A stretch of 64,000 nt of DNA from a virus (IMGVR_UViG_3300025626_000015:11718-75717); one strand, 5' to 3'; positions 5,405-63,184 are shown, counted from the first letter of the stretch. The notes: a model not told the origin generated them from the sequence alone. Numbers and translations: made by a program.

Positions 5405-5559
5405 GAAAATTAATTAAAAAAAGTACAGCAACTAAAAAATTACAATGTAGATGCAAAAATTGTACTAATATAGTAGAAGTTGCTTCTACATCATTATCAG
5501 TTGTATGCTCTTCTTGCACATTTAAAATGGCAGAAGGTATATTGGAATATTCCAAATAA
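5401..5559 (+). CDS. small zinc-ribbon protein, 52 aa, not in ORF track
   Basis: MRKLIKKSTATKKLQCRCKNCTNIVEVASTSLSVVCSSCTFKMAEGILEYSK; CxxC...CxxC; ATGA overlap. Confidence 0.65.
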   Translation: MRKLIKKSTATKKLQCRCKNCTNIVEVASTSLSVVCSSCTFKMAEGILEYSK

Positions 5560-5570
5560 TTTATTATAAT
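5542..5570 (+). promoter_or_regulatory. sigma70-like promoter (class A)
   Basis: TTGGAA-N17-TATAAT upstream of ATG 5583. Confidence 0.6.
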
Positions 5571-5582
5571 AAATAAAAAGTT

Positions 5583-6359
5583 ATGTTAGAAGCAGAAAAA
5601 ATTAAATCAAACTGGGATGAATATAGAAATAGAGTTAATACTTTATTTCCGGATAGAGCAGAAAAATTAAATAAATTATATGATGAGTATGAAGACAGAA
5701 TCGTAATGATGCCAGCTTCTTCTGTTGCTCATTATCATAATGCATTCGCAGGAGGATATATTGATCACGTACTTAGAGTCATGGATTGTACAGAAAAATT
5801 GTATAATTCTTGGGAAAGTATGGGATCTGATATGTCTGGATATGAGTATAACGAAATGATGTTTGCTGCAATGCATCATGATTTAGGGAAATGCGGATTT
5901 CCAGGAAAAGGAAGAGAAGTATATCAAGTTGAAACATCGGATTGGCATAGAAAAAATATGGGAAGGATGTATAAGCATAATGAAAATATTCCTTTCACAA
6001 TGGTACCAGATCTTTCAATATATTTACTTCAAAAATATCAAGTTCAAATGTCTTGGAATGAATATCAGGCTATTAGAATACATGATGGTATATATGACGA
6101 TGCTAATAAACCATATTTTATTGCAAGATCAGCACAAGCTAAACTAAAAACTAATTTACCTTTATTATTACATCATGCAGATCATATGGCATCTCAAATA
6201 GAATATGAAAGATGGAGATCTCATAAAAATAACTCACCTAATCCAATTAGTTCTAAAACGAAAGCTACTAAAAAAACAGCTATTAAAAATTTAGCAGAAC
6301 AAAATCCGGATATTGATAAATCAATTACAGACATATTTAAAACTTTTGGAGACTCATGA
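5583..6359 (+). CDS. HD-domain phosphohydrolase (YhaM/Cbf1-like)
   Basis: PAS...HNAFAGGYIDHV, HHDLGK, IRIHDG, LHHADHMAS motifs; no OB-fold N-terminus. Confidence 0.85.
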   Translation: MLEAEKIKSNWDEYRNRVNTLFPDRAEKLNKLYDEYEDRIVMMPASSVAHYHNAFAGGYIDHVLRVMDCTEKLYNSWESMGSDMSGYEYNEMMFAAMHHDLGKCGFPGKGREVYQVETSDWHRKNMGRMYKHNENIPFTMVPDLSIYLLQKYQVQMSWNEYQAIRIHDGIYDDANKPYFIARSAQAKLKTNLPLLLHHADHMASQIEYERWRSHKNNSPNPISSKTKATKKTAIKNLAEQNPDIDKSITDIFKTFGDS

Positions 6360-10583: not shown

Positions 10584-12464
10584 ATGGATGTAGTGAAAGA
10601 TGTAAAATATTTAAATAAAGATTTTAATCAATTTCGAAAAAATCTAATAGAATTTACAAAACAATATTTTCCTAATCAATATACTGATTTTAATGAGTCA
10701 TCTCCCGGCATGTTATTTGTTGAATTAGCTGCATATGTTGGAGATGTATTATCATTTTATACTGATACTAATTTAAAAGAATCTATATTAAGTCAAGCTC
10801 AAGAGCGTGGTAACATTATAAATCTAGCAAATATGTTAGGATATAAACCAATGAATTCAGTATCAGCTCAAGTCAAATTAAATGTATTTCAGTTAATACC
10901 AGCAAAAGGTTCTGGAGTTAATAATAAACCTAATTATGATTTTGCATTGTCTATTGCGCCAGGTTTAGTAGTGAAACAAGAAGTTGGTTCTGCTGAGTTT
11001 AGAACAATAGATGTAGTAGATTTTAATTTATCATCATCTATTAGTCCAACAGAAGTTACAATTTACGAAGTAGATCCAAGCACAAACGAACCGGTATATT
11101 ATTTATTAAAGAAACAAGCACAAGCTATTTCTGGAAATAAAAAAACAAAAACATTTAAATTTGAATCTGCTAAATCATATGATAAAATAGTATTACCAGA
11201 AAGTAATATTATAGAAATAATATCTGTAACAGAAGCTGATGGAGATAATTGGACAGAAGTACCATATTTAGCACAAGATACTATTTTTGAAGAAGTATTA
11301 AATGTAAAAGAAAATGATCCAGACACATATCAATATCGTGATTCGTCTCCATATTTGTTAAAAATGAAAAAAGTAGCAAAACGATTTATAACAAGATTGC
11401 GATCTGATAATAAAATTGAATTGCAATTTGGTTCTGGAGTTAGTGATAATAATGATGAAGAAATTATTCCTAATCCTAGTAATGTTGGAAATGGATTAGA
11501 AAGATTAAGAAAAAATGTTAATGTAGATATAGACCCATCAAATTTTTTATATACTAAAGCGTATGGAGAAGCTCCGTCTAATACTACATTAACTGTAACA
11601 TATACAATAGGAAACGGAATTTCAGATAATATTGATAGTAATACTATTAAAAAAATTGACTTTATAGAATTTAATGATGATCCAAATGCTACAACATCAC
11701 AATCAATGATGAATTTTGTAAAGTCTAGCGTTACTATTAATAACGATACTCCAGCGCGGGGAGGAAAGTCTGCAGATTCGTTGCAAGATATAAAAAATAA
11801 TGCAGCTTCTAATTTTGCTACTCAAAACAGATTAGTAACAAAACAAGATTATATAGTTAGATCATATTCAATGCCTTCTAAATTTGGAAGTGTTGCAAAG
11901 TCATATATAGTACCAGATGATCAAATATCACAAAATGATCTAGAAGACACTAGAATACCTAATCCGCTAGCTATGAATTTATATGTTTTAGGTTTTAATT
12001 CGTCTAAACAATTAAGCCCATTAAATACAGCTGTGAAAAATAATTTAAAAACATATTTAGATTATTATAGAATTTTAACAGATGCAGTCAATATTAAAGA
12101 TGCGTTTATTATTAACTTTGGAATTGATTTTGAAATAACAGTATTACCTAATTATAATTCTAATGAAGTTTTATTGAAGTGTATTGATACTTTACAAGTA
12201 TATTTTAATATTGATAAATGGCAGATAAATCAACCAATTATTAAGTCTGAAGTAATGAATACATTAGCTAATACAGATGGGGTTCAAAGTGTAGTAGGAT
12301 TAGAATTTAAAAATTTATATGATACTAATCAACGATATTCTGGAAATATTTATGATTTTACTACATCAACAAGACAAGGTATCATTTATCCTAGCTTAGA
12401 CCCTAGTATCTTTGAATTAAAATTTCCTAAAAAAGATATTAAAGGAAAAGTAACAACATATTAA
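10584..12464 (+). CDS. gp6: baseplate wedge subunit (T4 gp6/baseplate J-like)
   Basis: KDFNQFRKNL, DFNESSPGMLFVELAAYVGDVLSFY, LGYKP, FATQNRLVTKQDY. Confidence 0.9.
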   Translation: MDVVKDVKYLNKDFNQFRKNLIEFTKQYFPNQYTDFNESSPGMLFVELAAYVGDVLSFYTDTNLKESILSQAQERGNIINLANMLGYKPMNSVSAQVKLNVFQLIPAKGSGVNNKPNYDFALSIAPGLVVKQEVGSAEFRTIDVVDFNLSSSISPTEVTIYEVDPSTNEPVYYLLKKQAQAISGNKKTKTFKFESAKSYDKIVLPESNIIEIISVTEADGDNWTEVPYLAQDTIFEEVLNVKENDPDTYQYRDSSPYLLKMKKVAKRFITRLRSDNKIELQFGSGVSDNNDEEIIPNPSNVGNGLERLRKNVNVDIDPSNFLYTKAYGEAPSNTTLTVTYTIGNGISDNIDSNTIKKIDFIEFNDDPNATTSQSMMNFVKSSVTINNDTPARGGKSADSLQDIKNNAASNFATQNRLVTKQDYIVRSYSMPSKFGSVAKSYIVPDDQISQNDLEDTRIPNPLAMNLYVLGFNSSKQLSPLNTAVKNNLKTYLDYYRILTDAVNIKDAFIINFGIDFEITVLPNYNSNEVLLKCIDTLQVYFNIDKWQINQPIIKSEVMNTLANTDGVQSVVGLEFKNLYDTNQRYSGNIYDFTTSTRQGIIYPSLDPSIFELKFPKKDIKGKVTTY

Positions 12465-43295: not shown

Positions 43296-43396
43296 GTAAA
43301 TACATTATCTCTATATATAATGTCAATATAATCAATTATTCTATTAAGATTACAAATAATCTTATTTCCAAAATAAAAATTTAAGGAGAACAAGTA

Positions 43397-44431
43397 ATGA
43401 ACGGGAAATCGGACTTACTAAAAGAAGCAATTGCAGATGCCAAAGCCGTTAAGGAAACAGCATTAGCAAACGCTAAAATAGCTCTTGAAGAAGCTTTTGC
43501 TCCTAGAATCGAAGCAATGCTATCAACAAAACTTTCTGAAGATTTATACGAAGACGAAATGGAAGACGACGTCGCAGCTCCAGTAGCTGACGCACCTGTC
43601 GAAGAACATGACGTTATGTATGAGCCTGAAGCAGAAGGCGGAGAAGATATGGAAGCACCTGCACCAGAAATGGATGTTGAAATGGATATGGAAATGCCTG
43701 CTGAAGAACCAGTAGTTGCAGATGACATGGAAATGGAAGGCATGATGTATGATGTAGATGAAGATCCATCTGATCCTAATAGTAGTGTTGAAGAAGATCT
43801 AGAATTAGAAGCAATCATAAGAGAGTTAGAAGAAGATTTAAATGAAGAAGAATTAACTGAAGATGGTCATAATAATGACGCAGCTGATTCTACAGACTCA
43901 AAAGGAAATGATTTAATGTCAGAACCAAAAGAAATGAAAAATGAAGAATTCAATATTGATGAAATCATTGAAGAAATTCTTTCGGAAGAAGACAAAGAAG
44001 AACCTAAAGAAAAAGTAGAAGAAGGTGAGCATGATGATAAAGAATCTAAAGAAAAAGTAGAAGAAATGACTGAAGAATTAACTGAAGCATATGACACTAT
44101 TGAATCTTTAAGAGACACTATCAATGAAGTTAATCTTTTAAATGCAAAACTTCTTTACACGAATAAATTATTCAGAAATTTTGAATTATCAGAAAGTCAA
44201 AAAATGACAGTTATCGAAAATTTCGATAGAGCTGGTAATACAAGAGAAGTTAAATTAGTATTTAGTACATTAGCAGAAAATTTTACAGTTCCTGTAAAAA
44301 AGAGACAAATGGTAAAAGAAGGCTCAGCCTCTAAACCAGTTGAATCAACTGCACCTGTATCTAAATCAATAATCAATGAAGGTAATCAATTAGCTAACAG
44401 ATGGAAGAAGTTAGCCGGATTACTAGATTAA
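43397..44431 (+). CDS. prohead core/scaffolding protein (gp22-like position)
   Basis: Highly acidic, coiled coil, many [ILV]-x-E sites, directly upstream of major capsid. Confidence 0.8.
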   Translation: MNGKSDLLKEAIADAKAVKETALANAKIALEEAFAPRIEAMLSTKLSEDLYEDEMEDDVAAPVADAPVEEHDVMYEPEAEGGEDMEAPAPEMDVEMDMEMPAEEPVVADDMEMEGMMYDVDEDPSDPNSSVEEDLELEAIIRELEEDLNEEELTEDGHNNDAADSTDSKGNDLMSEPKEMKNEEFNIDEIIEEILSEEDKEEPKEKVEEGEHDDKESKEKVEEMTEELTEAYDTIESLRDTINEVNLLNAKLLYTNKLFRNFELSESQKMTVIENFDRAGNTREVKLVFSTLAENFTVPVKKRQMVKEGSASKPVESTAPVSKSIINEGNQLANRWKKLAGLLD

Positions 44432-53450: not shown

Positions 53451-53825
53451 ATGTCGACAGGAAACGTAATAAGATTAAGAAGATCCACAACTGCAGGATC
53501 AACTCCATTAGTAAGTACGTTACAATCTGGAGAATTATCAATTAATGTATATGACGGAAAATTATTTTTCAAAAGATCAAAAGATGGTAGTGATACAATA
53601 GAACAAATATTTACTACAGACACATTTGTTACAGGATCATTACAATTTAAACCTGATAGCGCAGAAACAAATATATTAGAAGTACATGAAAATAATAGTA
53701 CTTCAGCTTTGATAATAACATCACAAAGTATAATGACATTAAGAAAACAAGAAAGAGCAACACCTAATCCATCTTCTGGAGGAATTATGTATTCCGGTAG
53801 TTCATTTTGGGTAGGTTTAGATTGA
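53451..53825 (+). CDS. small fibre protein (Mtd-N/hyaluronidase-N-like domain)
   Basis: IRLRRSTTAGSTP...LQSGELSINVYDGKLFFK. Confidence 0.7.
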   Translation: MSTGNVIRLRRSTTAGSTPLVSTLQSGELSINVYDGKLFFKRSKDGSDTIEQIFTTDTFVTGSLQFKPDSAETNILEVHENNSTSALIITSQSIMTLRKQERATPNPSSGGIMYSGSSFWVGLD

Positions 53826-53925: not shown

Positions 53926-55164
53926 ATGGCAACATGGAAAAAAGTCATTGTCTCTGGTTCAACCGCTGATCTAGCAAATGTACAAAATGCTGGTATTGCT
54001 TCTAATCAAGTAGTAGTAGGCGCAGGAGCAGGAGCAAATCAAGTTGGTAAGGCATTAACAGCCGGCCAAATATTAATGGGGAACGCATCAGCTGTCCCAA
54101 CAGGAACAAGCGTTTCTGGAGATGCAACATTATCAAATGCAGGAGTATTATCTATTGCAAATGATAAAGTAACGTCAACAATGTTATCTGGAAGTATTGC
54201 AGATACACCAACAACAGGTGATTTAGTAAAAGTTGGTGCAAATGGAGCATTTACATTCTCTCCAGCAGCATCTACATTATCAGCAGGTAAAGGTATTGTA
54301 ATACCATCAAATAATAAAATATCAGCTTCGATTGATGATTCAACTATTGATTTTGATGGATCAGAACAATTACAAGTTAAATCTGGTGGTATAACAGCAA
54401 CTCAACTTGCTGACGATGCAGTAACTGGAGATAAATTATCAAACGCAGTAAGCGGTTCAATTGTATTAAATACAGCGAAAGTATCAAATGCAACTCACAC
54501 AGGAGATGTAACAGGTGCAACTGCACTTACTATTGCTAACGATGCAGTATCTAACGCAAAATTAGCTAACATGACTCAAGGTACTATTAAAGTTGGTGGT
54601 GGTTCAAATGCACCTACTGATTTAGATGCTAAAACAGCAGGACAGATTTTAGTTGGTGATGGAACAGATGTTAACTCAGTAGCAGTATCAGGCGACGTAA
54701 CTTTAGATTCAACTGGTGCAGTAACAATTGCAGACGATTCAGTTAATGGCGATAAATTAACTGATAATATTACAATAGCTGGTAATTTAACAGTAACAAG
54801 TGATTTAATAGTTAACGGAACAACTACAGAAGTTAGAACTGCCAATTTAAATATTGAAGACAAATTCATATTATTACAATCTGGTTCAGATGCCGCAGCT
54901 GCCGGCGATGTAGGTATTATATTTGGAGGAGTTTCAGCTGAACCAACTGTTGATTCATTTAGTTCTGGGCAAGGTTCATCATTATTTGTTGATAAAGAAT
55001 TACAAAGACTATCTTTAAGTAATGGCGCTGTTAGCCACGGTGCAACCGCAGCAACAGTAGGAGCACATATACCATTAGTAACTACCGGATCATTAACCGC
55101 AATAACACAAGTAGGTAACTTTAAAGTTGACGCTAGTGGTGATCTATTTGTATATGCAGGATAA
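53926..55164 (+). CDS. fibre protein
   Basis: MATWKKVIVSGS; repeated GDxT...TIAxDxVxxxKL units; GNLTV...VNGTTT...NLNIEDKFILL. Confidence 0.75.
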   Translation: MATWKKVIVSGSTADLANVQNAGIASNQVVVGAGAGANQVGKALTAGQILMGNASAVPTGTSVSGDATLSNAGVLSIANDKVTSTMLSGSIADTPTTGDLVKVGANGAFTFSPAASTLSAGKGIVIPSNNKISASIDDSTIDFDGSEQLQVKSGGITATQLADDAVTGDKLSNAVSGSIVLNTAKVSNATHTGDVTGATALTIANDAVSNAKLANMTQGTIKVGGGSNAPTDLDAKTAGQILVGDGTDVNSVAVSGDVTLDSTGAVTIADDSVNGDKLTDNITIAGNLTVTSDLIVNGTTTEVRTANLNIEDKFILLQSGSDAAAAGDVGIIFGGVSAEPTVDSFSSGQGSSLFVDKELQRLSLSNGAVSHGATAATVGAHIPLVTTGSLTAITQVGNFKVDASGDLFVYAG

Positions 55165-55207
55165 TTATTAATTATATTAAGTATATTTAATTTTATATTA
55201 TATTTTT

Positions 55208-55237
55208 AAAGCAGGGAGAGATTCTCCCTGCTTTTTT
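55208..55237 (+). terminator. intrinsic terminator
   Basis: AAAGCAGGGAGA-gat-TCTCCCTGCTTT then T-tract. Confidence 0.88.
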
Positions 55238-55247
55238 ATATATAAAT

Positions 55248-55276
55248 TTGTATTATTAAATATTTATTATTATAAT
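55248..55276 (+). promoter_or_regulatory. sigma70-like promoter (class A)
   Basis: TTGTAT-N17-TATAAT upstream of ATG 55295. Confidence 0.55.
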
Positions 55277-55294
55277 CAATATAGAAAGTTATAT

Positions 55295-55537
55295 ATGGCC
55301 TTTGTAAGAAATCAAAATAAAAAAAATGTTATTATAGAAAAACAAGATACCAATATTAATCGGTCATCTAAAAAGTTTCAAGAATCTAAAAATACACAAT
55401 TTCAACCACAATTCACAAAATCTGAAGCAATATGGATGATGGGGTTAATTAAAAATCATACATTTAAAGGAGAAGAAGTACAAAAGGTTTATGAAGCAGT
55501 TGTTAAATTACAATTAATTGTTAATGAATCTAAATAG
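55295..55537 (+). CDS. hypothetical protein
   Basis: 80 aa ORF between two fibre genes. Confidence 0.7.
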   Translation: MAFVRNQNKKNVIIEKQDTNINRSSKKFQESKNTQFQPQFTKSEAIWMMGLIKNHTFKGEEVQKVYEAVVKLQLIVNESK

Positions 55538-55542
55538 TTATA

Positions 55543-55550
55543 TATTTATA
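55543..55550 (+). promoter_or_regulatory. putative late promoter TATTTATA
   Basis: Immediately upstream of structured leader and ATG 55628. Confidence 0.65.
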
Positions 55551-55560
55551 TTAAAATAAA

Positions 55561-55621
55561 CTTATTGTTGGCCCGAAAGGGAAGTGGGCAGTATTAATAC
55601 TGTAACCAACCATAATAGGAG
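55561..55621 (+). ncRNA. candidate structured cis-regulatory RNA (three-way junction) in fibre 5' UTR
   Basis: GTTGG/CCAAC closing stem, CCC-GAAA-GGG tetraloop hairpin, GCAGTA-ttaa-TACTGT hairpin; GC-rich in an AT-rich genome; abuts AGGAG. Confidence 0.55.
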
Positions 55622-55627
55622 AAGTAA

Positions 55628-58339
55628 ATGCCAAACTGGAAAAAAGTCATTTTATCTGGCAGTAATGCCGTTCTAGCAGAAATAACTGCATCAAGAAATT
55701 TATCAGGTAGTGGGACAGCTACCGCATCATATGGATTATTCACCGGATCTTTTGGAGGAGACGGGTCACAATTAACAAATGTTCCATCAACACCTTTCCC
55801 ATTTACAGGTGACGCTTTAATTACTGGCTCATTAATAGTATCACAATCATATACAGTTGGAGACACAGACTCAACAGCATTAAGATTAATAGGATCAGGT
55901 TCAGTAAGTCAATCAGGAATATTTGAAGTAGAAGGATCAGCAGGCCCACTATTTTCAGTAGCAGATGGATTAGATGGTGTTTTAATGGAAGTAAATAATA
56001 TTTCAGGTTTACCATTATTTCAAGTATCATCTTCAAATGAGGTATTCATTAATAGAGGTAATTTAACATCTGGTGTTACTACTGCTACTGCGTCATTTGC
56101 ATATTTCACCGGATCATTTGCTGGCGATGCATCTGGATTAACAAATGTCCCTGCAGGTTCAACACCAACCTTAGATGCAGTAACAACAGCAGGTAATGTT
56201 ACCTCAAATGCAATTACCGCAGGAACGATATCGGGATCTTCTTTCAAATTAAACAATGCAAATGCTTTATCACATACTGGAAATGTTTTATATGTAGGTA
56301 ATGCAAATGATTGGACTACTATAGAATTAGGTAGACAAACAACAGATGAAATTCATGTTAATGGTCTTTTAAAAGCAGAACAACTTTTAAGAGCAGAACA
56401 AGGTATAATAGTTTCAGGTTCTACTATCTTTAAACCAACAACTTCTTCCCCAGCTAGTATAGAATTTTCCACGGAACCTTATAGTGGTCAACGAACTCCA
56501 ACTATAACATTAAAAAATGCCTCTGATCAAAAAACAGTTCATATAGGACATTCTATAAATGATGGCTTGTTTGAATTATATAATTCTTCTGAAACTAGAG
56601 TTGTAAGTATTCAAGAACATTTTCAAGCATTTTCTCCTCCAGGTGGACTTAGTTCAGGGTATGGAACTTATTTTGGTGTAACTAGTTCAATTTCTCCATC
56701 AGTAGCATCTCCAGATTCATATGTTAAAATAGCACATGATGGTTATAGTGCAGTACCTTATAGTATTTTACAACTAAATAAAAAAGGAACTTTTGCAGGT
56801 TCTGGCTCTATAACATTACAGGGCATAATGAACAGCAATAATAATTCTGCACCTTCAATAGGTATTACTTCTGTTAATGGAAATAGAGTAGTTAATTTCG
56901 GAGGTCCTGGATTTGTAAATGCTGCTAACGTACATAATAACTATTTAAAATATGGATTACAAGTAGGAGGTGATTTTACAGGTAATTCCTCCAATATGGC
57001 CCTTACAGATGGTTCTTTAATAATGTCAGGATCAACTGGAGGATTTTCAGTAAAAAGTGTTTCAAGTGAAGCTGAAATTAAAACAAATGATGGGGATACT
57101 ACTTTAACATTAGGTACTACTTCTTCATTTTCATATGTGTCAGCTTCAGCATTTAAAGGTGATGGTTCAAATTTAACAAATTTACCAGCAGGTTCAACAC
57201 CAACACTACAACAAGTAACAGACCAAGGTGCATCTACAACAAATGACATTCAAATAACAGGTTCATTAAATGTATCTGGATCAATAGATATAGAAATGCC
57301 ATCTGGATCTGCTTTTACAATACATGAAGGCGATGCATCTACTAATTATGAAAATAGATTAGATTTTTTCTATGATGAGTCAGACCCAACATTAGAAATA
57401 GCAGCAAGAGCTGCAACATCTACATTAATATTAAGTAAAGATGGTGGCGGCTCATATAAAACAACACTTACGGGGTTAGGTACATTAACTTATAAAGCAG
57501 CTGGAACAGATTATGGAGTTCAATTAGGCACATCATTTAAACCTGTTGCGACAAATCAACAAGATTTAGGATTTTATAATCGTAGATGGAAAAATCTTTA
57601 TTTATATTCGACTAATAAAATTGGTTGGGGAACTACAAATGCAGATGACCATGCTGCATTTGCTCATACTTCCGGAACTGGTAAAATAACACTAGAAAGT
57701 GATGTGTATACTCCAATATTTGAATTAAATGGTCCTATAACAGCTTCGGCATTTAAAGGTGATGGTTCACAATTAACAAATTTACCAGATCCATTCCCAT
57801 TTACAGGAAACGCAGGTATAACAGGATCATTATCTATAACAGGTTCAGGAGGATTATCAGTAGAATCATCAGGTTCAACAGTATTTGAAGTAATAGGATC
57901 AGAAGGTACATTATTTTCAATAGATGATGATTTAGATGGAGTTATATTTACTGCAAATGATCGATCAGGTCTTCCAGTACTAGAAGCGTCAGCTTCAGGA
58001 GAAGTTTACATAGGAAAATCACCACAATCTTTATACACAACCGCAGTCATAAGTTCTAATAACGCTAACGTAACGCAGTCAATTTATGGATTGGATACAA
58101 GTTCATATGGAGGAGCATTCTTTGAATACACTGCTCATTCGGGGTCAAACGCACGTGCAGGAAATATAATGTCTGTATGGAATGGTTCAAGTCTTAATTT
58201 CACAGAGACTACCACAACTGATATTGGCTCAACATCAGATTTAGTTATGAAAGTTCATGTATCAGAAAGTCAAGCACAATTAGCAGCTTTCTCTACAAAT
58301 GCAGGTTATAATATTAAAACAATAATAAAATCAATATAA
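55628..58339 (+). CDS. long modular tail fibre protein
   Basis: MPNWKKVILSGS; four GDxSxLTNxP joints; duplicated FEVxGSxGxLFS..D.LDGV...SGLP module; DLG...RRWKNLY. Confidence 0.8.
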   Translation: MPNWKKVILSGSNAVLAEITASRNLSGSGTATASYGLFTGSFGGDGSQLTNVPSTPFPFTGDALITGSLIVSQSYTVGDTDSTALRLIGSGSVSQSGIFEVEGSAGPLFSVADGLDGVLMEVNNISGLPLFQVSSSNEVFINRGNLTSGVTTATASFAYFTGSFAGDASGLTNVPAGSTPTLDAVTTAGNVTSNAITAGTISGSSFKLNNANALSHTGNVLYVGNANDWTTIELGRQTTDEIHVNGLLKAEQLLRAEQGIIVSGSTIFKPTTSSPASIEFSTEPYSGQRTPTITLKNASDQKTVHIGHSINDGLFELYNSSETRVVSIQEHFQAFSPPGGLSSGYGTYFGVTSSISPSVASPDSYVKIAHDGYSAVPYSILQLNKKGTFAGSGSITLQGIMNSNNNSAPSIGITSVNGNRVVNFGGPGFVNAANVHNNYLKYGLQVGGDFTGNSSNMALTDGSLIMSGSTGGFSVKSVSSEAEIKTNDGDTTLTLGTTSSFSYVSASAFKGDGSNLTNLPAGSTPTLQQVTDQGASTTNDIQITGSLNVSGSIDIEMPSGSAFTIHEGDASTNYENRLDFFYDESDPTLEIAARAATSTLILSKDGGGSYKTTLTGLGTLTYKAAGTDYGVQLGTSFKPVATNQQDLGFYNRRWKNLYLYSTNKIGWGTTNADDHAAFAHTSGTGKITLESDVYTPIFELNGPITASAFKGDGSQLTNLPDPFPFTGNAGITGSLSITGSGGLSVESSGSTVFEVIGSEGTLFSIDDDLDGVIFTANDRSGLPVLEASASGEVYIGKSPQSLYTTAVISSNNANVTQSIYGLDTSSYGGAFFEYTAHSGSNARAGNIMSVWNGSSLNFTETTTTDIGSTSDLVMKVHVSESQAQLAAFSTNAGYNIKTIIKSI
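57141..57788 (+). repeat. 48-bp direct repeat pair 600 bp apart (57141-57188, 57741-57788)
   Basis: CAGCTTCRGCATTTAAAGGTGATGGTTCA...TTAACAAATTTACCAG, 3 mismatches. Confidence 0.9.
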
Positions 58340-58340
58340 T

Positions 58341-59054
58341 ATGGGAATCAGAAGAGGTTCAATATCAACCCCAATAATAGCGGATGGGCTAGTATTCAAT
58401 ATGGATGCTGCAAATAGGGCAAGTACTATACCTAGTACTAGTACTTTAAAAACATTTAATACTGTAGATACTGCTGTATCTGGTTCTATATCTACAGATG
58501 CAACATGGGAAGATGGATCTCCTTCCTCATTTGATTTTGATGGTACTGATGGTTATATAGGTTTTTCAAATCTAGGATCAATATGGAATATGGTTAATTC
58601 AGCTTATACTGTAAATCTTTGGTATAAACAACAACAAGGTAGTGGTACAGGTATGCCAATAATGCATTTTTATGGAGGTTCTGGAGGAAGTGCTGATATG
58701 TTTTGGATATACAATAGACCTCAATTTTCTAGATGGGATATGTATAATAATGGTGGTGCAGGAATTAATAGATTTGTTATTACTACTACTACAGGTGTTT
58801 GGTATAATATGACCTTTACATGGTCAACATCTGAGGGTTTAATAAAGGCATATCAAAATGGTGTTTTTAATAGTAGTCAAGCACAAACAGGAATCCCAGC
58901 ATCAGGTAATACTAATTTTGAAATAGGTAGAGATAATATTCCCTCCACTAATTTAAATGCAAATATAGCAAGTCTTCAATTATACAACCGCGCCTTATCA
59001 GCAAATGAAGTTTTACACAACTACAATGCATTAAAAGGGAGATTTGGATTATAA
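58341..59054 (+). CDS. LamG/concanavalin A-like lectin domain protein
   Basis: DGLVFNMDAAN, FDFDGTDGYI, WYNMTFTW, YQNG, LYNRALSANEV. Confidence 0.85.
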   Translation: MGIRRGSISTPIIADGLVFNMDAANRASTIPSTSTLKTFNTVDTAVSGSISTDATWEDGSPSSFDFDGTDGYIGFSNLGSIWNMVNSAYTVNLWYKQQQGSGTGMPIMHFYGGSGGSADMFWIYNRPQFSRWDMYNNGGAGINRFVITTTTGVWYNMTFTWSTSEGLIKAYQNGVFNSSQAQTGIPASGNTNFEIGRDNIPSTNLNANIASLQLYNRALSANEVLHNYNALKGRFGL

Positions 59055-62540: not shown

Positions 62541-62611
62541 ACTGGTTTATAATATTTATATATAAATAAGTCATCATCATTCATACTGTTACAATAATAG
62601 CCCGGTAACAT

Positions 62612-63184
62612 ATGAAATATCTATATTTTCTTTTATTCTTTATTTGTAATTACAATATATATTGTCAAGATACTATCTTCCGGTTTGAAGAAAAACCTAT
62701 AGTTGGAAAGATATTGTTTACTAATCATGATATTATATTTTATAAAAAAAATAATTTTATAAAAGATATACCATCAGAACTTGTATTTGGATATAAAAAA
62801 AATAATAAATTGTCTATATTATACAAAGAAAAAGGACAGCCATTTACCACAATACAAATGAACGATTATATAATAGGCAGGACTAAAGGATATCAAGATT
62901 ATAATCCAGGAATTCCATTTACAGTCGGATTTTTTAGTACTTATTTTTACACATATTATAATACAAGAGGGTTAACAAGAAATCCAAAATTTTCATCATT
63001 AGCATTTACTGTAGTTCCAACAATGTTATTTACATATATAAAGCCCAGAACCAATAAATTATGGAGCTTAGAAAAAAGAATAGGATATCAATTATCTAGA
63101 TCTGAAAGAAATCAATTAACTAGTTTTATAGGTGCTATACTAGGCACGGCATTTATATATACACTCTACTTTTCAAGTAACTAA
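62612..63184 (+). CDS. membrane protein with signal peptide
   Basis: MKYLYFLLFFICNYNIYC-QDTI; about three C-terminal hydrophobic segments. Confidence 0.7.
   Translation: MKYLYFLLFFICNYNIYCQDTIFRFEEKPIVGKILFTNHDIIFYKKNNFIKDIPSELVFGYKKNNKLSILYKEKGQPFTTIQMNDYIIGRTKGYQDYNPGIPFTVGFFSTYFYTYYNTRGLTRNPKFSSLAFTVVPTMLFTYIKPRTNKLWSLEKRIGYQLSRSERNQLTSFIGAILGTAFIYTLYFSSN

Follow-up and report, generated by a model that had tools for sequence, protein, structure and literature searches.

A conserved three-way-junction RNA precedes a tail-fibre-like gene in aquatic phages related to Flavobacterium phage immuto

Introduction

In phage T4, the gene 32 leader pseudoknot and the RegA sites are translational operators that are bound by a phage protein and so set protein yield. 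The leader that we describe here, upstream of a tail-fibre-like gene, shares with them the arrangement of a phage mRNA leader in which a 5' structure is combined with the initiation region. The gene 32 operator, however, is an H-type pseudoknot with an unstructured AU-rich tract, whereas the fibre leader is a three-way junction and, unlike that operator, is predicted in some lineages to contact the start codon through a loop. A three-helix junction with a conserved G.U-containing step near the start is found in the S15 mRNA leaders, which are protein-binding translational operators as well. The fibre leader likewise places a three-way junction and a conserved G.U step close to the start site, but compared with the G.U/G-C motif of 16S h22 its step is interrupted by an AA bulge and has the opposite orientation. 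None of the Rfam S15 leader families matched it, and the gene downstream encodes a phage fibre and is not rpsO.

Two further kinds of leader have features in common with it. Stabilisers of the ompA-leader type are paired at the extreme 5' end of the mRNA and are free to change in sequence provided that their stem is preserved; the fibre leader differs from them in keeping an invariant junction and in being tied to the start codon region. Purine-type riboswitch aptamers are three-way junctions with variable outer stems and a P1 that lies next to expression signals. The fibre leader is of similar size, with the same kind of junction and variable stems, but its junction strands are far shorter (3 + 1 + 0 nt) and it has no conserved loop-loop contact between P2 and P3.

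Host range is determined by the fibres, and the same baseplate sites must serve several fibre paralogs. Only a few controls of phage tail-fibre genes at the RNA level are on record, and we found no RNA motif tied to a fibre gene in the literature searched. In a screen that covered every IMG/VR intergenic region, Fremin, Bhatt and Kyrpides (2023) obtained 8,495 anonymous candidate models (PMC10690425). Their text, which also cites the gene 32 pseudoknot, names no tail- or fibre-associated motif; since all intergenic regions were screened, it is plausible that our element was included, and it may be among the anonymous candidates. The GP20-a and GP20-b motifs treated there (Rfam RF02991 and RF03003) and similar candidates are, like the fibre leader, small covarying structures, detected by comparative genomics within about 25 nt upstream of one phage morphogenesis gene, and they are presumed to act in cis, as we propose for the fibre leader (PMC10690425). 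Fold, sequence and gene all differ from ours. We rate the element as a new family within a known kind, the cis-regulatory phage leader RNAs, which is unusual in that loops complementary to the start codon can be carried by either arm. A family entry for it is warranted, as annotation pipelines treat this stretch as empty spacer.

Results and discussion

A structured stretch in front of the fibre gene

We studied a stretch of 64,000 nt from a viral contig (IMGVR_UViG_3300025626_000015:11718-75717), called the window below; all features of the locus lie on the + strand. An ORF for an 80-aa protein (55295-55537) ends with a stop codon at 55535-55537 and is followed by the promoter-like motif ATATTTATA (55542-55550), an AT-rich spacer and a GC-rich stretch. 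The latter, at 55561-55621, has ~42% GC and stands between spacers of 10-20% GC. A Shine-Dalgarno (SD)-like AGGAG occupies 55617-55621, and the ATG at 55628 opens a gene (55628-58339) that starts with MPNWKKVILSGS and encodes a 903-aa tail-fibre-like protein, whose immuto homolog is annotated as 'putative tail fiber-like protein'. The letters quoted in a first-pass annotation of this stretch, the AGGAG and the ATG among them, all lie where it had put them. Folded alone, the 61 nt reached -17.3 kcal/mol with z = -2.5, a value that is suggestive of a non-chance structure but not decisive; it is the conservation, not the fold energy, that marks the element as more than chance. Repeat searches found no second copy within the 64-kb window.

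The fold supported by comparative analysis is also the minimum-free-energy fold of the single sequence (bases are numbered here by their last two or three digits). In the outer helix of P1, C61-U68 (55561-55568, CUUAUUGU) pair with A612-G619 (55612-55619, AUAAUAGG), and the 3' strand takes in the first three bases of the AGGAG. A one-base bulge follows at 55569 (U here; U, A or C in relatives), and then the two junction-closing pairs, G70-C611 and G71-C610 (55570-55571 with 55610-55611). P2 is the hairpin CCC-GAAA-GGG (55572-55581), in which C72-74 pair with G79-81, and the linker J2/3 consists of A82, A83 and G84 (55582-55584). P3a joins UGG (55585-55587) to CCA (55606-55608) through U85-A608, G86-C607 and G87-C606; it is separated from P3b by the bulge A604 A605 on the 3' side of P3 (55604-55605). 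P3b is the hairpin GCAGUA-UUAA-UACUGU (55588-55603), which begins with the G88.U603 wobble and C89-G602 and continues with a variable stem and loop. The single A609 (55609) forms J3/1. The outer helix of P1 is supported by the minimum-free-energy fold together with covariation, P2 and P3b by covariation, and P3a by covariation and RNAalifold. The window therefore carries each part by which we define the family: P1 with its bulge and GG:CC, P2, AAG, UGG:CCA, the AA bulge, a G.U-closed P3 and the single A.

Covariation in three helices

The element is a real three-stemmed RNA, a three-way junction that has been kept with compensatory changes. We built an alignment and a covariance model (R1) from 104 distinct relatives, the window itself being part of the seed, and gathered a second set of 91 distinct sequences in which the 5' half was left free and the 3' half and gene start were fixed. 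Across the 104 sequences, 89.3% of the cells were paired in the supported fold and the covariation score was 0.367; shuffles scored 0.142 (0 of 500 reached 0.367), and sliding the partners by 1-3 columns gave 0.04-0.12. The same fold in the 5'-half-free set gave 88.9% and 0.338.

The five junction-proximal pairs of P1 were formed in 88-98% of the 104 relatives, with AU, GC, UA and GU exchanges, and likewise in the 5'-half-free set; in both sets covariation fades just beyond the five or six pairs nearest the junction. Among the 104 sequences, pair 67:613 is A-U in 58, G-C in 35 and U-A in 6, and pair 68:612 is U-A in 56, U.G in 38 and A-U in 8. In P3, pair 86:607 is G-C 92 times, A-U 12 times and never unpaired, and the P3b pairs 47:68, 48:67 and 49:66 are changed on both sides in 46-59 of the 104. 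Pair 88:603 is a G.U in 93 sequences and an A-U in 9, and G-C does not occur. The third pair of P2 is divided between CG (40) and UA (37) in the 5'-half-free set. Flavobacterium phage immuto has A71-U610 (GA...UC, against GG...CC elsewhere), a compensatory exchange at an otherwise invariant pair. On the opposite strand, the 93 G.U at 88:603 and the 38 U.G at 68:612 would turn into A.C mismatches, which identifies the sense strand as the one that folds. RNAalifold, run on a MAFFT alignment, recovered P3a and P3b and did not recover P1 and P2.

These results bear out the central proposal of the first-pass annotation, a conserved structured three-way-junction RNA in the fibre-gene leader: both conservation and covariation were found in the orthologous UTRs, in favour of a structured leader RNA. 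Its P2 and P3 are backed by covariation as drawn. Its P1 is not, since in GTTGG (55567-55571) with CCAAC (55606-55610) the pair 67:610 would be unpaired in 66 of the 104 relatives and 69:608 in 44. The pairing of CTTATT with AATAGG, offered there as an alternative, does exist and overlaps the AGGAG, but it belongs to the supported P1. Of the purine linker AAGTGG, the AAG is indeed unpaired, and the UGG half pairs with CCA (55606-55608).

An invariant core with variable arms

Near-invariant positions comprise both GG:CC pairs, the first C-G of P2, the AAG, U85-A608, G87-C606, U603, the first bulged A and A609. G70:C611 and G71:C610 are invariant G-C in the 104 and the 91 distinct sequences, with immuto the exception at G71. 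In J2/3, A26 and G27 are invariant and A25 is present in at least 90% of the 104-sequence alignment; among 196 parsed sequences the AAG was found in 195, the parsing pattern having admitted A or G alone at the first base. The bulge is AA in 164 of these 196, and its first base is A in most. The J3/1 A (A52) is invariant in the 104-sequence alignment, for which the selection pattern admitted A or T there, and it was also unchanged among the model-aligned sequences listed.

P2 and P3, on the other hand, are free to vary in length and loop. P2 stems reach about 24 nt, and P2 loops include GAAA (73), GUAA (17), UUCG (5) and others; because GNRA loops are common there yet not obligatory, a tetraloop-receptor contact is not required. 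The invariant paired bases round the junction point to recognition by something, not mere stability, and so unusually invariant a core points to a specific partner.

Distribution and linkage to one fibre gene

With this element we define an RNA family that occurs widely among aquatic myophages related to Flavobacterium phage immuto; hundreds of marine and freshwater phage contigs carry it. A 20-mer of the core, GGCCCGAAAGGGAAGTGGGC, was letter-identical in 110 IMG/VR contigs; ATGCC.AA.TGGAAAAA comes within about 25 nt after it in nearly all of these, and a TATTTATA-type motif stands before it. The pattern with a free 5' half (3' half and gene start) occurred in at least 120 contigs, and parsing gave 200 distinct sequences of element plus gene start. 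Fibre-gene homologs recovered by protein search have diverged versions of the element in the same place. The fibre gene start is conserved at the nucleotide level and is followed by a variable fibre body, and the core of the element is more conserved than the flanking proteins.

The covariance model had exactly one match each in the source contig (75.7 kb), in seven other IMG/VR genomes (101-187 kb, four of them at 93-99% completeness) and in the immuto genome (160 kb). The window, itself in the seed, matched R1 over its full length with 78 bits (E 1e-20), and one hundred sequences from a later scan scored 41-74 bits. Among 50,697 deposited phage records searched with short queries, the element was confined to the records of Flavobacterium phage vB_FspM_immuto; a 3.4-kb DNA query gave no near or distant match among deposited phages. 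Microcystis phage Mel-JY01 has neither the element nor the fibre N-terminus, and it is uninformative as a contrast because the latter is missing too. We also considered host copies and set them aside: 185,579 bacterial and archaeal species genomes, scanned with one strict core form (three-pair CCC/GGG P2, loop of 3-8 nt), gave six weak, chance-level matches of 13-17 bits, against 41-78 for true members.

The linkage to one kind of fibre gene is exclusive, the single copy in each genome checked standing in front of the paralog that starts MPNWKK. An element lies within 150 nt of 206 of the 216 distinct MP.WKK starts, and in another four the distance upstream is about 118 nt; by comparison, it precedes none of 139 starts of the MA.WKK paralog. 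Across the family, 12-24 nt (rarely about 118 nt) separate it from the ATGCC....TGG downstream.

Rfam 15 (4227 models), searched with 55000-56000 at E up to 10, has no family that matches the element; the sole overlap was a chance-level one with psbNH (12.7 bits against a gathering score of 45, E 4.9). Six loci that span all three element classes gave nothing on the element at E up to 1. The earlier description of it as undescribed agrees with this absence from Rfam 15 and with the literature searched, including the text of PMC10690425, where no fibre-associated RNA motif was found.

Ties to the ribosome start site

An SD-like word is present in about 42% of the members, and more than half have no SD at all. 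The classes differ in this respect. In the long-P2 class an SD occurs in all 32 members and 1-4 of its bases lie inside P1 in 27, compared with the short class, in which an overlap between SD and P1 is missing in 27 of the 41 members with an SD-like word. The hosts are probably Bacteroidota, whose translation is initiated independently of Shine-Dalgarno pairing (PMC9976891); the choice or masking of start sites in these bacteria could therefore be illuminated by a leader in contact with its own start codon. The cultured pair of Flavobacterium sp. LMO8 and phage immuto has the element and makes it open to direct study.

A second tie comes from the apical loops. Extended P2 arms (about 18-24 nt) end in UGGCA, UUGGCA or UUUGGC, and extended P3 arms (23-26 nt) in GGCAUA(A), so the same kind of loop occurs on two different arms. 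The start region reads (UA)UGCCAA(A), and a Watson-Crick complement of 5-7 nt to it was found in 16 of 16 long-P3 loops and in most long-P2 loops among those listed; most of these runs are reached by at most 5% of shuffled targets. The distance from CC to AUG also grows, from 12-17 nt to 17-22 nt, in the long-P2 and long-P3 classes. As both partners are constant, the predicted loop-start contact is without covariation, and the 'GGCA' loops could alternatively be a protein-binding or tertiary-contact motif. In the class with short P2 and P3, which is the commonest and includes the window, the enrichment is weak: start-complementary runs of at least 4 nt occur in 42% of members and 31% of decoys. 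GCA and CAU are nevertheless three to four times commoner in the P3 of this class than comparable trinucleotides. We also tried a pairing of UUGGC, in the bulge region of P1, with GCCAA of the start region and rejected it, as base 69 and base +6 do not covary.

The second codon of the gene (55631-55633 in the window) is CCA or CCG in 94% of 200 relatives and CCU in 4.5%, compared with 38% CCU elsewhere in the same genes. This avoidance of CCU could reflect pairing or a plain preference in start context. Base +6 of the fibre gene is under synonymous constraint. A subset of loci (L091, at 11536-11650; also L084, L134 and L164) has about 100 extra bases between element and ATG, flanked by the near-repeats CCAACCGCGATAG ... 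CCAACGATAC. This insert contains a hairpin with compensatory changes (AUGGGU..ACCAU, UGGGG..CCCA and AUGGUU..ACCAU) and, distally, CCAACGAUA, a 9-bp complement of the 5' strand of P1; it could be a second leader domain, an alternative partner of P1 or a small insertion with target duplication.

Taking fold, conservation and position together, we consider it very probable that the element is a functional, structured, cis-acting 5' leader RNA. Control of translation through a cis-acting operator, whose invariant junction would bind a factor, has in our judgement about an even chance of being its function, a view drawn from sequence comparison. P1 would hold the mRNA 5' end and, where an SD is present, its first bases. 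In lineages with long P2 or P3, the apical loop would pair with (UA)UGCCAA(A), and the folded leader would thereby be tied to the start codon. A trans-acting factor may dock at the invariant junction; a protein encoded by the phage or one of the ribosome is most likely. By stabilising or opening the closed state, this factor would set the output of this fibre relative to its paralogs. That several fibre paralogs have the same N-terminal anchor makes the idea that the leader sets fibre stoichiometry, put forward in the first-pass annotation, a reasonable one. Against an operator, a simple brake on translation could do without an invariant junction, start complementarity in the short class is weakly enriched and the SD is absent in over half of the members. 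Phage bS21 was tried as an obligatory partner and rejected, being present in only three of five near-complete genomes that bear the element.

The probable 5' end of the fibre mRNA

The window holds 21 copies of the motif ATATTTATA where 9.2 would be expected, and 19 of the copies are on the + strand; 18 are intergenic and directly upstream of ORFs, the tail sheath gene included. We infer promoter function for this late-promoter-like motif. The leaders behind it are mostly 4-36 nt long, compared with 77 nt for the fibre gene. A TAT[TA]TAT[AT] motif precedes the element in 136 of 198 relatives; between its end and the GG there are 3-37 nt, in most cases 10-14 nt, and a terminator hairpin often stands immediately before the motif. 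As the element lies just downstream of a recurrent promoter-like motif, it probably coincides with the 5' end of the late fibre mRNA or begins only a few bases from it. At T4 late promoters, initiation takes place about six bases after the motif; if the same geometry is followed here, the transcript would start at about the first well-supported pair of P1. Contigs from four marine metatranscriptome runs covered 55259-55668 and variants of the element; these are contigs only, which may include DNA, show no start, end or strand and leave some parts without cover.

Several observations on these sequences may be added. The + strand sites of ATATTTATA include 32043, 12472, 49750, 59387 and 63184. 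Some of the leaders behind the motif measure 4-7 nt to the ATG, which would make the late mRNAs nearly leaderless if the motif is a -10-type element. Other long leaders behind it, at 43296-43396 (101 nt, before a 344-aa ORF at 43397) and 62561-62611 (51 nt, before a 190-aa ORF at 62612), are AT-rich. Compared with 54800-57000 of the window, the RNA-library contigs (X15-X19) carry variant elements, for instance with P2 as CCUC-GAAA-GAGG or of a CUAACC class, and the metatranscriptome contigs indicate that related phages and the fibre locus are common in marine samples of several studies.

This position bears on a different function, in which the element would be a 5'-terminal stabiliser: by burying the first bases it would shield the long fibre mRNA against 5'-end-dependent decay, and no regulatory partner would be involved. 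The spacing of 10-14 nt would, with the T4 late geometry, place the beginning of P1 at or near +1. Covariation fades just beyond the five or six pairs nearest the junction, and the fibre gene is often a transcription unit of its own behind a terminator. A stable 5' hairpin would suffice for such a purpose, however, and the near-invariant junction bases, the AAG, the single A and the G.U, kept through 200 variants, are left unexplained, as are the start-codon-complementary loops. The element is also found at one late gene among many that have the same promoter motif. We therefore regard a plain stabiliser as unlikely, though not negligible.

Receptor and two-state readings

In a bolder reading, the junction would be a dedicated receptor for a small molecule or ion, for the small ribosomal subunit or for an unassembled phage structural protein, and the leader would present or withhold the start codon accordingly; in some lineages the anticodon-loop-like GGCAUAA or UGGCA loop would be paired to AUGCC. 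We put this forward tentatively, as a reading with a small chance of being right. If true, it would mean a new class of sensor or of SD-independent initiation element in phages of Bacteroidota-type hosts, by which the making of the fibre would be coupled to assembly state or cell state.

The invariant G and C bases allow pairings that are mutually exclusive, which would fit a two-state RNA. RNAalifold proposed that G80G81 pair with C610C611 in place of G70G71. This arrangement conflicts with the covariation in P2, which favours the three-way junction, but since it would use invariant bases it may represent a second state. The pairing of GCCC with GGGC is likewise possible; both sides are invariant across the relatives, so it carries no covariation signal. 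Together with the small junction, the invariant bases, the variable peripheral stems and a place in the 5' leader beside the ribosome start site, these alternatives are what one would look for in a riboswitch or ion sensor, in which the junction would be the aptamer and a ligand, a small molecule whose level reflects how far the infected cell has come, would fix the closed fold and change fibre translation. The junction offers four unpaired bases and two or three bulged ones for a pocket, which is little, and a tail-fibre gene hints at no ligand. Moreover, none of the riboswitch classes of Rfam 15 matched, as the first-pass annotation had anticipated, and most members show no terminator or other clear expression platform. 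A riboswitch thus seems improbable to us.

Transcription, processing and exchange of DNA

Elements of the put type in phage HK022 act on their own polymerase and hence sit downstream of the promoter. The fibre leader too lies immediately downstream of a promoter-like motif, with long genes following, so it might promote put-like read-through of tail-operon terminators, or else be a self-cleaving or RNase-recognised site. A terminator scan found one terminator nearby, at 55208-55234, and none in 55561-55627, and no U-run follows the element, so that the earlier view that it is not a terminator holds. The ribozyme and antitermination models of Rfam 15 did not match. A hammerhead requires CUGANGA, GAAA and the UH of its cleavage site between three stems. 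The junction, with AAG and one A only, is too small for such a core, and the GAAA is a variable apical loop of P2 and not part of a hammerhead core; that no hammerhead core was recognisable had been noted from the outset. Other late units of the window have the promoter motif without the element, and action on the polymerase or on processing would leave the link to the start codon region unexplained. We consider this quite improbable.

That the stretch is a DNA-level homology cassette for swaps of fibre modules between co-infecting phages, with the RNA fold incidental, is very improbable: T4-type phages do have promoter-stem-loop cassettes, and identical 20-mers in otherwise diverged contigs, as well as a highly conserved core that abuts a conserved gene start and a highly variable fibre body, would suit one, but each of the three helices shows compensatory exchanges, the G.U pairs are specific to one strand and the hairpins vary in length, all of them marks of selection on an RNA fold that selection on DNA homology would not leave.

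Genes and repeats around the element

In most loci, homologs of the 80-aa protein with the pattern ..E.EFLL.LIKNS.FKGE.VE.LY.LV.KLQ.. are encoded 30-260 nt upstream of the element. They form a phage-only family of 55-100 aa between the MA.WKK paralog and the element; other examples are at 5519-5698 of locus L191 and 11181-11423 of locus L091. The 80-aa protein had no match in Pfam or PHROG. Its look-alikes in the Atlas were unnamed, viral-only clusters by features and one bacterial entry of low TM by structure, and its structure model shows a disordered N-terminus and a generic C-terminal helical hairpin. Being encoded next to the element, it is a candidate regulator or chaperone and no more than that. 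A second small ORF, of the pattern ..LRQSL..I.I.G.DA.F...LQ.KL.., often lies between this protein and the element.

The hairpin at 55208-55234, GCAGGGAGA-GAU-UCUCCCUGC, is strong, has an A-run and a T-run at its flanks and comes after the gene of the MA.WKK fibre; it resembles a two-way terminator and drew weak chance matches to Rfam sRNA terminator models. Three consecutive genes (53451-53825, 53926-55164 and 55628-58339) share a fibre-type N-terminus, M[AP].WKKV..SGS. The 903-aa gene has internal repeats of 48-137 nt, such as 55702-55785 with 56068-56151 and 55913-56049 with 57875-58011, and the gene next after it (58341-59054) encodes a concanavalin-A-like lectin domain.
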